Source: a virus (taxonomy: Duplodnaviria > Heunggongvirae > Uroviricota > Caudoviricetes). From it: DNA of 16,973 nt. Under the pieces are notes generated by a model. The model worked only from the letters and a program-made list of their open reading frames with translations, was not told where the DNA came from and did not search any database. Of this stretch, positions 8,255 through 9,985 are shown piece by piece (position 1 is the stretch's first letter; each line of letters starts with the position of its first letter). The stretch lies in IMG/VR virus record IMGVR_UViG_2529293240_000008, positions 1-16,973 of that record. One strand, 5' to 3'. The position numbers and the translations under genes were made by a program.

Positions 8255-8320
8255 ATATTGATTCTGCAATTTCGGGACGTTACACTGTCTCTGCACCTTA
8301 TAAAGCGGGTGCCGGGATTT
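8255..8320 (+). repeat. Direct repeat copy A (~62-66 bp, one mismatch versus copy B) carrying a sigma70-like promoter
   Basis: ATATTGATTCTGCAATTTCGGGACGTTACACTGTCTCTGCACCTTATAAAGCGGGTGCCGGGATT; near-identical copy at 8911-8976. Confidence 0.9.
8259..8287 (+). promoter_or_regulatory. Sigma70-like promoter of module 1
   Basis: TTGATT (8259-8264), 17-nt spacer, TACACT (8282-8287). Confidence 0.5.
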
Positions 8321-8350
8321 GCACCCCGGAATTGTCAACGGCGATATACG

Positions 8351-8370
8351 ACGCGCCAGCGTCTTTTTTA
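8351..8370 (+). terminator. Attenuator-like intrinsic terminator in the module 1 leader
   Basis: GACGC-GCCA-GCGTC hairpin followed by TTTTTT, about 65 nt downstream of the promoter and upstream of the structured RNA. Confidence 0.45.
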
Positions 8371-8394
8371 TCGTCCGCGCTCACGCACGCCAGA

Positions 8395-8510
8395 ATTATG
8401 GTGGGCTGGGCAGGGGAGCCGAAAGGCTCGCCGGTCTCCGTTGACGCCGGTAGTGCAAACCCTGTTCAGTCCGCCACCAGCGAGATTTGCACCTCCGGTG
8501 GTGGAAGTTT
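8395..8510 (+). ncRNA. Candidate C4/CI-type antisense regulatory RNA, copy 1
   Basis: Conserved core shared with copy 2; GNRA hairpin GAGCC-GAAA-GGCTC (8417-8430); hairpin loop CTCCGTTGAC (about 8437-8446) complementary to GTCAACGGAG at the RBS of the downstream gene (8518-8527) and to GTCAACGG upstream (8335-8342). Confidence 0.45.
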
Positions 8511-8535
8511 TCCACAGTCAACGGAGGCTGCCATC

Positions 8536-8898
8536 ATGGCTACAGTCCCAACCCACTCATTCCTCAAAATTGAGACCGTCAACGGCAAGGCCGTTATTTT
8601 CTCTTTGCATGTGGCCTGCCACTTTAAGCGCATGCACCAGAACATCGTAGACAAAATCGAGTATCTGAACTGCTCGCGCGAATTTTTTACCCGCAATTTC
8701 ATACCGGGTACTTACCACATCTATGACGACTCTCTGCGTGGTTATTACATCACCCTTGATGGTCTGATGCTGCTTCAGCTTGGGTTAAGTCTGCGCACAA
8801 TGCGGTACTACGAGAGTTGCATTGAAGCGTTCCATGAGGCTGAAACCGTCCAGGTGCATTCCGCTTTCCGTCGTCATCAACGGGAGGTGCACCTATGA
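8536..8898 (+). CDS. Rha/AntA-domain phage regulatory protein (120 aa), module 1 cargo
   Basis: ATG 8536 with GGAGG 8 nt upstream. N-terminus MATVPTHSFLKIETVNGKAVIFSLHVACHFKRMHQNIVDKIEYLNCSREFFTRNF parallels the module 2 protein. Confidence 0.7.
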   Translation: MATVPTHSFLKIETVNGKAVIFSLHVACHFKRMHQNIVDKIEYLNCSREFFTRNFIPGTYHIYDDSLRGYYITLDGLMLLQLGLSLRTMRYYESCIEAFHEAETVQVHSAFRRHQREVHL

Positions 8899-8910
8899 TC
8901 CGCTACCTGA

Positions 8911-8976
8911 ATATTGATTCTGCAATTTCGGGACGTTACACTGTCTCCGCACCTTATAAAGCGGGTGCCGGGATTG
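8911..8976 (+). repeat. Direct repeat copy B carrying a sigma70-like promoter
   Basis: Same sequence as 8255-8320 with a single T/C difference. Confidence 0.9.
8915..8942 (+). promoter_or_regulatory. Sigma70-like promoter of module 2
   Basis: TTGATT, 17-nt spacer, TACACT, identical to module 1. Confidence 0.5.
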
Positions 8977-9003
8977 GCGTCCTGAAATTCAATATAGAGC
9001 ATA

Positions 9004-9025
9004 ACCGCGCTCATGCGGTTTTTTC
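9004..9025 (+). terminator. Attenuator-like intrinsic terminator in the module 2 leader
   Basis: ACCGC-GCTCAT-GCGGT hairpin followed by TTTTTT; different sequence from module 1 but the same position and architecture. Confidence 0.45.
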
Positions 9026-9050
9026 GTGTCATGAGCATTGCTACGCCCAA

Positions 9051-9146
9051 ATTATGGTGGGGCGTGCAGGGGCATCGCAAGATGCGCCGGGTTCTATGTT
9101 GACCGGTTACGCCAACCCTGTACGTCTCACCACCTCTGTGATTGGC
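9051..9146 (+). ncRNA. Candidate C4/CI-type antisense regulatory RNA, copy 2
   Basis: GNRA hairpin GCATC-GCAA-GATGC (9072-9085); loop CTATGTTGA (9094-9102) complementary to TCAACATAG at the RBS of the downstream gene (9172-9180) and, with one G-U pair, to TCAATATAG upstream (8989-8997). Confidence 0.45.
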
Positions 9147-9191
9147 GTCCCATGTGATGAGTTCTTTGAATTCAACATAGGGGCTGTCACC

Positions 9192-9755
9192 ATGACTACT
9201 CTCCCAACCCTCTCTCAACCTGAAATTGCCATCGTTGATGGTCAGGCTGTTACTTCATCCCTGGCTGTTGCTAACTTCTTCTCTAAACGTCATGACGATG
9301 TTCTGAAAAAGATCCGCATTTTGGATTGTTCTCCAGAGTTTTGTGCCCGCAATTTTGCGGAGACATCAATTTTGGTACGCCAGCCCAACGGCGGTACTCG
9401 CAAACTTCCCTGCTACCAAATCACCCGCGACGGCTTCGCCTTCCTTGCTATGGGCTTCACTGGTAAACGTGCCGCCCGGTTCAAAGAGGCATACATCAAT
9501 GCCTTTAACCAGATGGAGAGGAGCTTATCAGGAGCTGGTGCGGCTGACATGTCATCTGTCGCACAAAACGCCAGAGGCGTATACCTGCATTTGCGTGAAA
9601 TCCATCAAATCTGGACAAGCCAGCTTTACCCAATGCTTAAGGCCGTTGAATCTCCGCTGGCTGGCAAACTGTACGACCGTGTAGGTGATGCTGTTTTTGG
9701 TGCTGCACTTGTTGATTCCAGGCTGAATGGTTCTGACAAGGAGGTGCGCCCATGA
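9192..9755 (+). CDS. Rha/AntA-family phage regulatory (antirepressor-like) protein (187 aa), module 2 cargo
   Basis: ATG 9192; N-terminus MTTLPTLSQPEIAIVDGQAVTSSLAVANFFSKRHDDVLKKIRILDCSPEFCARNF (Rha/AntA pattern). Confidence 0.75.
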   Translation: MTTLPTLSQPEIAIVDGQAVTSSLAVANFFSKRHDDVLKKIRILDCSPEFCARNFAETSILVRQPNGGTRKLPCYQITRDGFAFLAMGFTGKRAARFKEAYINAFNQMERSLSGAGAADMSSVAQNARGVYLHLREIHQIWTSQLYPMLKAVESPLAGKLYDRVGDAVFGAALVDSRLNGSDKEVRP

Positions 9756-9985
9756 TCCGCCACATCGTTAATTTCCTGTATCACCGATACAACCATTGCC
9801 CCCGTGTGGGGCAGTGGTTCACCACCAGCAACGGCTACGTTCTGCGGGTTTGCCTGGTCAGTACCGAAAGCCAGAAGGTTGTCTGCCAGGTTCAGGGACG
9901 TACTCATACCCTGAGTTATCCGCTGGTGGCGTTTCAGTCCGGAAAAATGTTTAAACGCCTGGGAGGTGGCTATGCGTCCGTCTGA
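9752..9985 (+). CDS. Hypothetical small protein (77 aa)
   Basis: AAGGAGGTG RBS 6 nt upstream of ATG 9752; start overlaps the stop of the Rha-like gene (ATGA). Confidence 0.55.
   Translation: MIRHIVNFLYHRYNHCPRVGQWFTTSNGYVLRVCLVSTESQKVVCQVQGRTHTLSYPLVAFQSGKMFKRLGGGYASV

Follow-up and report, generated by a model that had tools for sequence, protein, structure and literature searches.

Composition and recognition elements of the two modules

IMG/VR virus record IMGVR_UViG_2529293240_000008 (Caudoviricetes) is a stretch of 16,973 nucleotides (nt), referred to at its full length as the window, that represents an Escherichia coli lambdoid prophage. Its early-right operon contains, directly 5′ of the replication genes, two consecutive modules that each consist of (i) a promoter, (ii) an IsrK/seqA-type leader RNA with a terminator and the decoy sites a1 and b1, (iii) a C4/CI-type antisense RNA, (iv) the target sites b3 and a3, and (v) a gene of the Rha family. 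The region is probably an array in which two self-contained immunity modules of the P4/P1 type stand in tandem, and the ATG at 8895 between them would serve as a functional, translationally coupled start.

Both modules read on the plus strand. Module 1 opens with a conserved left block (8255-8320) that holds a −35 box (TTGATT, 8258-8263), a 17-nt spacer, a −10 box (TACACT, 8281-8286), and the first 27 nt of the leader RNA IsrK-1. The latter (8293-8369) matches Rfam family RF01394 with 61.8 bits (isrK, cut-off 50 bits), is the equivalent of P4 seqA and of c4-a1b1, and carries b1 (8318-8324), a1 (8334-8341), and an intrinsic terminator stem (8350-8363) followed by a U run. The antisense RNA C4-1 (8394-8481; RF01695, 80.1 bits with a cut-off of 45 bits) presents the cores a2 (8438-8445) and b2 (8453-8459). 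Its targets occupy 8486-8527, with b3 at 8486-8492 and a3 at 8517-8524, the second overlapping the ribosome-binding site (RBS) GGAGG (8523-8527) of rha-1. This short Rha-family gene (8536-8898) encodes 120 residues, comprising the winged-helix N-terminal domain only. It ends within junction 1 (8883-8906), which reads GGAGG, 7 nt, ATGA (rha-1 stop and ATG 8895), and then CGCTAC, and a CTGA linker (8907-8910) joins the junction to the module-2 promoter.

Module 2 has the same layout: a left block (8911-8976) with a −35 box at 8914-8919, a −10 box at 8937-8942, and the 5′ part of IsrK-2; IsrK-2 itself (8949-9025; RF01394, 61.9 bits) with b1 at 8974-8980, a1 at 8989-8998, and a terminator stem at 9003-9020 plus U run; C4-2 (9050-9137; RF01695, 80.1 bits) with a2 at 9094-9102 and b2 at 9109-9115; and targets at 9142-9183, where b3 occupies 9142-9148 and a3 (9172-9180) overlaps the RBS AGGGG (9179-9183) of rha-2. 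The long Rha-family gene rha-2 (9192-9755) encodes 187 residues that score 94.6 bits with Phage_pRha (PF09669) and 90 bits with TIGR02681, and its product is 85.6% identical to the "phage antirepressor Ant" of phages encoding Shiga toxin 1 (Stx1). Junction 2 (9740-9763) again combines an RBS with ATGA, here the rha-2 stop over the start of a gene for 77 residues. Transcription starts were placed at the first base of the Rfam isrK match. Both C4 matches cover model positions 1-87 with no non-canonical pairs marked, both contain a conserved in-frame AUG near their 5′ end (8398 in C4-1, 9054 in C4-2), and in both modules the distance from the first base of C4 to the Rha gene is 142 nt, with no separate small open reading frame (ORF) in between. 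The position of AUG 8398 corresponds to the start of orf45 in the Salmonella prophage Gifsy-1 (PMC4825925). The two Rha products share 38% identity over 109 residues (E = 4e-20).

The two modules are bounded by the same sequences. A repeat search of the window returns a direct repeat of 79 nt (8255-8333 and 8911-8989; 92% identity), within which 8255-8319 and 8911-8975 differ at one of 65 bases (T at 8292, C at 8948). An initial interpretation made from the bare sequence, called here the sequence-only reading, had placed this left repeat correctly and allowed it one mismatch over 66 nt; the near-identity stands, and a second mismatch at 8320/8976 raises the count to two (64/66 identical). The same reading had paired the end junctions, and indeed 8883-8906 and 9740-9763 are identical at 21 of 24 positions, while a junction search with three mismatches returns no third site in the window and no hit in 200 dinucleotide shuffles. 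The first junction contains ATGATCCGC at 8895. That the second is the RBS and start of the 77-residue gene is confirmed by ORF 9752-9985, which opens at ATG 9752 and has its ATGA overlap with the rha-2 stop. Aligned over 8230-8910 and 8886-9770, flanks included, the modules have a mean column identity of 72%, with the interiors at 55% ungapped identity and the flanks at 97%. They are still clearly homologous, as both score as isrK and as C4.

The interior divergence, which the sequence-only reading had called high, is real, and its differences cluster in co-varying recognition elements. In module 1, the C4 loop core a2 (CCGTTGAC) is complementary to GTCAACGG at a1 in IsrK-1 and at a3 over the RBS, and b2 (GTGCAAA) is complementary to TTTGCAC at b1 and b3. 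In module 2, a2 (CTATGTTGA) pairs with TCAA(T/C)ATAG and b2 (ACGCCAA) with TTGGCGT. Two-element pairing of a2 and b2 with RBS sites (a3, b3) and with upstream decoys (a1, b1) is thus found in both modules. The a and b elements both differ between the modules at all three sites, with matching changes, from which the prediction follows that either C4 pairs only with the leader of its own module.

Loop-only duplex energies agree with this prediction. The a2 core of C4-1 forms duplexes of −15.4 and −18.8 kcal/mol on its own sites versus −7.1 and −7.9 kcal/mol on those of module 2 (the second value of each pair being that for the leader), the reverse comparison for C4-2 gives the same own-site preference, and own targets are energetically favoured in every array examined. 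Over 72 unique modules, cognate and non-cognate means are −15.5 versus −7.7 kcal/mol for a2:a3, −13.9 versus −8.2 kcal/mol for a2:a1, and −14.3 versus −9.3 kcal/mol for b2:b1. The 18 a types and nine b types seen occur in 28 combinations, which indicates that a and b elements reassort. Swapping b alone demands coordinated change at three separated sites (b1, b2, and b3).

The computation shows that the two modules carry different specificities, with C4 RNAs that are predicted to be orthogonal, and the divergent interior encodes specificity and is not random divergence. The identity of the left blocks ends exactly where the b1 core begins (8318-8324), and this boundary is therefore functional and not a scar. 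Selection for heterospecific arrays was considered and dropped on account of the small number of identical (a2,b2) pairs expected by chance.

Long open frames and the start at 8895

A long frame runs through each module. The first (7378-8898, plus strand; 506 codons and a stop) starts 3 nt past the stop of the Rha-family gene at 6602-7375, crosses the DUF4222 gene (7395-7568, plus strand; PF13973, 55.9 bits) in another frame, passes antisense through a toxin-antitoxin (TA) pair (7590-8253), and continues through the module-1 promoter, IsrK-1, and C4-1 in phase into rha-1. It matches Phage_ASH (PF10554, cut-off 26 bits) with 52.3 bits at residues 302-392, and its layout equals that of the annotated "Ant" ORF of an Stx1 phage (L001). 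The second (8895-9755, plus strand; 286 codons) begins at the ATGA junction, crosses the promoter of module 2, IsrK-2, and C4-2, enters rha-2 in phase, and matches both Phage_ASH (44.1 bits, residues 15-109) and Phage_pRha. RefSeq calls a 99.6%-identical copy of it one "Rha family phage regulatory protein".

These frames are maintained across the family. Among 120 unique modules, the frame is open from 5′ of the promoter into the downstream gene (the cargo) in about 100, and the other frames close within about 50-150 nt. Length variants between C4 and cargo differ by multiples of three (142, 145, and 148 nt; 136 and 133 nt). Across the 63 unique modules that are colinear, no codon site of the long frame bears a stop, compared with 15 and 17 sites in the other two, although the opportunity for stops is similar between frames (19 sites versus 24 and 24). 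Column shuffling leads to a mean of 34 stops expected in the long frame, where none is observed, and leaves the control frames unaffected. An ATGA in frame is present in 14 of the 30 distinct contexts found 5′ of the −35 box, at a distance of 15, 18, or 21 nt in 12 of these, and at least four of the linkers in such contexts are unrelated in sequence. A stop in the long frame occurs in one of the 30 contexts versus 27 and 12 in the control frames. The C4 sequence itself does not impose the open frame, which is absent at distant C4 loci (Pseudomonas, Burkholderia, and others).

This material bears on ATG 8895, which the sequence-only reading regarded as orphaned, that is, as a non-functional scar in which a copy of the 77-residue gene start was stranded by one unequal recombination and now heads an accidental frame. 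The type-1 joint does look like that gene start fused to the 3′ end of DUF4222, and the frame shows no constraint at the amino acid level. A scar is nevertheless unlikely. ATG 8895 has GGAGG 7 nt upstream, an ATGA overlap with the rha-1 stop, and a 286-codon frame in phase with rha-2; RBS, ATG, and overlap are kept in all joint types, unrelated linkers included, and always in the same frame. Stops are avoided, insertions and deletions come in multiples of three, and the frame is homologous to P4 eta. With this statistical support and the homology to eta, ATG 8895 is best taken as a putative functional coupled start.

Several points weigh against the reading of the region as two stacked immunity modules with such a start. 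The long frame lacks third-position periodicity (entropy 0.689, 0.686, and 0.672), and the evidence for its translation is therefore the avoidance of stops and frameshifts and not protein conservation. The antisense passage of the module-1 frame through the TA cassette is odd. It meets no stops in 228 codons versus 10 and 12 in the other plus-strand frames, and is retained as tentative support. By a post hoc codon-usage estimate, the chance of an open frame through DUF4222 and TA is about 0.002 combined (0.05 for the higB-like gene), and synonymous-codon shuffling of TA and DUF4222, which is uninformative for the codon-aligned higB-like gene, leaves the frame open in 17-19% of shuffles and is not individually significant. 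The module promoters rest on homology to the isrK transcription start; a generic promoter scan (threshold 9) did not flag them, and by the count made here they match the sigma-70 consensus at eight of 12 positions. The rha-1 product scores 29.3 bits with Phage_pRha, just below the cut-off of 29.9 bits, and the presumed antirepressor activity of Rha-family products derives solely from annotation by homology. Arrays in which an (a2,b2) pair occurs twice are absent, and with only about 1.5 identical pairs expected by chance, by an estimate made here, this absence is not significant. Finally, IsrK of Gifsy-1 is described as an activator acting directly on mRNA, such that the sign or route of regulation may differ (PMC4825925).

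Joints, copy number, and cargo among relatives

The sequence-only reading had proposed that the promoter-RNA-gene unit is an exchangeable cassette with conserved ends and that related prophages should be compared for other copy numbers and other cargo. Both were found, and the proposal holds in that copy number, order, and cargo vary among phages. In an IMG/VR sample of 120 loci (L008-L127) fetched by the C4 core pattern alone, 13 contain tandem arrays of two to four modules. Phages encoding Stx1 or Shiga toxin 2 (Stx2) have one module, located between DUF4222 and the 77-residue gene; the Stx1 phage L001 combines an RNA body like that of module 1 and another b element at all three sites with a gene like that of module 2. 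E. coli strains A8, N96, AVS0453, and MFDS1006657 have two or three modules in varying orders, and in A8 (L004) a module with the a2/b2 elements of module 1 is in second position.

A close relative is E. coli O121 strain 201805972 (L248), which is 99.8% identical to window positions 8255-13290. In its array (2008-5231), a BRO-N gene precedes three modules that repeat every 656 nt and the 77-residue gene, and ATGA overlaps join all of them. The last two modules are 99.8% identical to those of the window, and the first joint contains an unrelated linker (ATGATTGTTCTCCAAG) that leaves the frame unchanged.

Behind the same left part, the cargo can be a short or long Rha gene, an Icd/kil-like ORF (56-81 residues), the 77-residue protein, or others. 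Unrelated cargo (Rha, Icd/kil-like, 77 residues, 81 residues) mostly shares its first ~7 codons (ATGGCTAC…CCAAC…), translated as MAT(V/I)PT or a close variant, which means that the conserved left part reaches into coding sequence. The right boundary is nearly always an RBS with overlapping stop and start. As the comparison shows, modules appear to be gained, lost, reordered, and supplied with new cargo by recombination at three conserved boundaries, namely (i) the ~65-nt block of promoter and 5′ IsrK, (ii) the first ~7 cargo codons, and (iii) the RBS + ATGA junction.

Three loci (L005 at 2641-3511, L042, and L114) contain an array module in which about 22 codons of the Rha gene are left and run in frame into the next module. 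In L114 (from 3518) the result is a 397-residue in-frame fusion of two modules, with a frame that is open across the second promoter, IsrK, and C4.

The tandem joints retain traces of their origin. In single-module phages, the 3′ end of DUF4222 (…GAAGCGCCACCAGCATATTGA) enters the −35 box of the module, with its stop codon inside the box, and the 77-residue gene starts as ATGATCCGCCACATC…. The commonest joint reads ATGATCCGC, then CACCAGC, then ATATTGATT. A 6-nt microhomology, CGCCAC, is common to the 77-residue gene start and the DUF4222 3′ end, and the tandem joint is what a crossover in CGCCAC between the two would leave, with the DUF4222 3′ end as the apparent donor of the CACCAGC remnant. 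Joints of at least five types occur, and the variants include one that keeps more of DUF4222 (ATGAAGCGCCACCAGC, in L015), one that is 3 nt shorter (ATGATTCGCCAAC), and the substituted type found in the window (ATGATCCGCTACCTGA). The gene before the window type is, depending on the phage, a short or long Rha gene or one for 64 residues, and the joint sequence of junction 1 follows different upstream genes in L007, L084, L120, L055, and L248. A scan of species-representative genomes did not return the joint pattern, though it is common in E. coli strains.

The second module might have arisen by duplication in place followed by divergence of the interior, and not by import from another phage. The nearly identical left blocks (64/66) and the 656-nt period that recurs in several arrays are in keeping with such an event. 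However, the interiors are far more diverged than the flanks, the RNA bodies and genes have closer relatives elsewhere in other combinations (L001, L004), and one and the same joint connects varying partners. Left blocks (66 nt) from one array resemble each other more than those from different loci (mean 0.86 versus 0.77) and the RNA bodies resemble each other less (0.61 versus 0.69), which fits import with boundary recombination and not divergence in place. Duplication in place is accordingly improbable.

An integron-type or other site-specific gene cassette was rejected because a repeat search found no inverted repeats at the module ends and the ten ORFs scanned between 5089 and 13157 include no recombinase, the scan being limited to those ORFs.

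The genes around the array are as follows. Upstream are a cI-like repressor (5089-5784, minus strand), a cro-like gene that precedes the gene at 6602-7375, and the latter, a Rha-family DNA-binding gene. The TA pair consists, by Pfam, of a HigA-like antitoxin (HTH_3; 7590-7898, minus strand) and a HigB/Gp49-like toxin (7888-8253, minus strand). An exact insertion between the 3′ end of DUF4222 and the promoter of module 1 (cassette stretch 7569-8254), it is missing in Stx phages and E. coli O121, and has the same layout in E. coli A8 and L055; it is context and lies outside the module proper. Downstream, the conserved 77-residue gene (9752-9985, plus strand) leads into the replication genes, namely an O-like gene (9966-10880), a DnaC-like gene (10882-11769), and a DnaB gene (11766-13157). 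A family search gave no match for the 77-residue product, and the gene is annotated in every related phage examined.

Three further features lie in the window. Within the O-like gene, 10300-10332 and 10426-10470 contain an inverted repeat of 15 nt together with three 21-nt repeats that overlap at a period of 12 nt (CAGAGAATAC…), which look like origin iterons. Group II intron domains are found at 669-782 (D1-D4-2, 81.8 bits) and 1460-1535 (domains 5/6, 57.8 bits), about 870 nt apart with no ORF of reverse-transcriptase size between them, and this looks like an ORF-less group II intron in the prophage. A cluster of four tRNA genes (Met-CAT, Arg-TCT, Thr-TGT, Gly-TCC) occupies 14279-14589.

Relation to known immunity units and proposed operation

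The modules are evidently homologous to the immunity unit of P4 (PLE-seqA-CI-seqC-kil/eta) and to immI of P1. In P4 (L250), Rfam places isrK (seqA) at 8615-8692 and C4 (CI) at 8420-8507, in the same order as in the window. The P4 ORF 8168-8812 covers both RNAs, keeps the frame that the window ORFs have relative to C4, and is in phase with the 65-residue kil. An ATG of this ORF, at 8767, lies over the stop of ORF88 upstream. ORF 8168-8812 and the 65-residue ORF are the eta/kil pair. Their nested design, a long ORF leading from 5′ of the promoter into the first regulated gene, recurs in 7378-8898 and 8895-9755; in P4, as at 8895, an ATG that overlaps the stop of the preceding gene opens a frame that passes through the promoter region and both RNAs and stays in phase with the cargo. 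Also shared are the RBS-to-ATG context of kil (GGAGGCTGCCATCATGGCTAC) and a cargo that opens MAT…. Forti and colleagues are said to have reported in 1999 that the PLL transcript from upstream is the only one to yield eta and that translation of eta prevents immunity-specific termination. Unlike the window, P4 has one unit, a kil cargo (Icd-like, 65 residues), and an alpha replication operon controlled by Rho-dependent termination, whereas the window has two stacked units (up to four in relatives), Rha-family cargo, and a lambdoid early-right operon. CI lies within a gene of the "Bro network" (PMC10111431).

In P1 and P7, the c4 antisense RNA is encoded 5′ of its own target on one transcript and acts through two short complementary pairs around the RBS, and differing specificities of P1 and P7 result in heteroimmunity (PMC12197685, PMC8198154). 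The same a/b logic as in their immI (c4-icd-ant1/2), which is also that of P4 seqA-CI-seqC, is found in both window modules. In contrast to the single unit of P1, the window modules lack a separate icd ORF, C4 is followed directly (142 nt) by the Rha gene, and the cargo is of the Rha family and not P1 Ant. Elsewhere in the family, some modules do have Icd/kil-like cargo. P1 was not among the hits of a tblastn search made with an Icd-like cargo protein.

Gifsy-1 encodes the small RNA IsrK with a leaky terminator and a processed RNA of ~80 nt that lies inside the translated orf45 (STnc1160) (PMC4825925). The latter overlaps a C4 homologue, starts at a conserved AUG at its 5′ end, and must be translated for the translation of anrP, which is antirepressor-like; its nucleotide sequence is conserved and its peptide is not (PMC4825925). 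The isrK-orf45-anrP arrangement shares with the window the conserved AUG at the C4 5′ end. It differs in that orf45 ends at an AUGA overlap with anrP, whereas the window frame has no stop there, is fused to the Rha gene 138 nt downstream, and also extends upstream through IsrK and the promoter. Moreover, Gifsy-1 has a single unit, beside the late antiterminator region.

The joints among relatives can also be set beside lambdoid mosaicism at large. In the modular-evolution idea of Susskind and Botstein, lambdoid phages exchange units at short conserved gene-boundary sequences. The array is similar in that the same boundary is joined to different neighbours; unlike in that model, the boundaries here are functional elements (the promoter, and the coupling RBS + ATGA) and the unit can be stacked in tandem.

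The matches to Phage_ASH allow for a different view of the long ORFs, as genuine two-domain "Ash-Rha" proteins with a functional Ash peptide, in which the RNA matches would be secondary. The ORFs are free of stops, the hits reach 44-80 bits, and the annotation pipeline PGAP names the same ORFs "ash family protein". The residues matched, however, are translated promoter, isrK, and C4 (44.1, 55.3, and 52.3 bits; window 8257-8535 and 8937-9191, P4 8168-8584), and in both P4 and the window Phage_ASH corresponds to this region in translated form. The family was founded on the old "cI" ORF of P4, itself a Phage_ASH match, which contains the CI RNA. The immunity factor of P4 is this RNA and not the protein of the "cI" ORF. 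Both RNAs of each module score well above the Rfam cut-offs, all their pairs are canonical despite many differences between copies, variation tracks the a/b pairing code, and codon-position periodicity is absent. The amino acids encoded by orf45 also lack conservation (PMC4825925). Two-domain proteins are thus very improbable, and a functional Ash peptide is not claimed because the codon-periodicity test was negative. As far as these matches go, Phage_ASH membership says nothing about protein function. The Ash domain is treated as of unknown function in a study of Stx phages (PMC8951638), and a ribosome profiling (Ribo-seq) paper on enterohaemorrhagic E. coli excluded C4 and isrK from its analysis.

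An assembly artefact in the form of a collapsed or expanded repeat, which the sequence-only reading had named as its own undoing, has a negligible probability and is already refuted as far as sequence comparison can show: the copies, only ~72% identical overall, are not misjoined reads of one copy, and the same two-module array recurs, 99.6% identical, in two complete E. coli genomes, with colinear versions in 88 of 5426.

With P1, P4, and Gifsy-1 as a guide, the array of immunity modules might operate as follows. In a lysogen, each module promoter would give mostly terminated IsrK and processed C4, and C4 would block translation of its own Rha gene. On transcripts started upstream, ribosomes would re-initiate at ATG 8895 and translate through the module-2 promoter, the IsrK terminator, and C4 into rha-2. 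Such read-through transcripts may escape antisense, terminator, and Rho control, and they would not be polar on the replication genes.

A broader proposal, put forward tentatively and rather less likely to be right than wrong, is that the whole early-right operon forms an unbroken chain of coupled frames with in-frame RNA switches and that stacked modules amount to a combinatorial immunity/anti-immunity array. Selection would then keep the frame free of stops and frameshifts without peptide constraint, even antisense through the TA cassette. Upstream transcripts would be blind to the module terminator and antisense RNA, and transcripts from the modules' own promoters would stay under RNA control. 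If this chain exists, a prophage of this kind would silence the antirepressors of several phage classes and, on infection, have a better chance of evading resident C4 RNAs.

The RNA immunity units of P4, P1, and Gifsy-1 are known; what is new are stacked, heterospecific, boundary-shuffled arrays of them in lambdoid prophages, and literature searches, none aimed specifically at tandem arrays, found no paper describing tandem heterospecific ones. The "Ash/Rha family proteins" of Stx-converting and other E. coli prophages are hereby recast as RNA-controlled switches of the P4/P1 type, and the Pfam Ash family as the translation of two RNA genes. Variable arrays of one to four modules with a combinatorial code bear on prophage cross-talk, superinfection immunity, and the induction of Shiga-toxin phages. 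They also offer a testable case of a frame that is kept across non-coding RNA genes for the act of translation and not for the peptide, which would generalise the eta/kil arrangement of P4.

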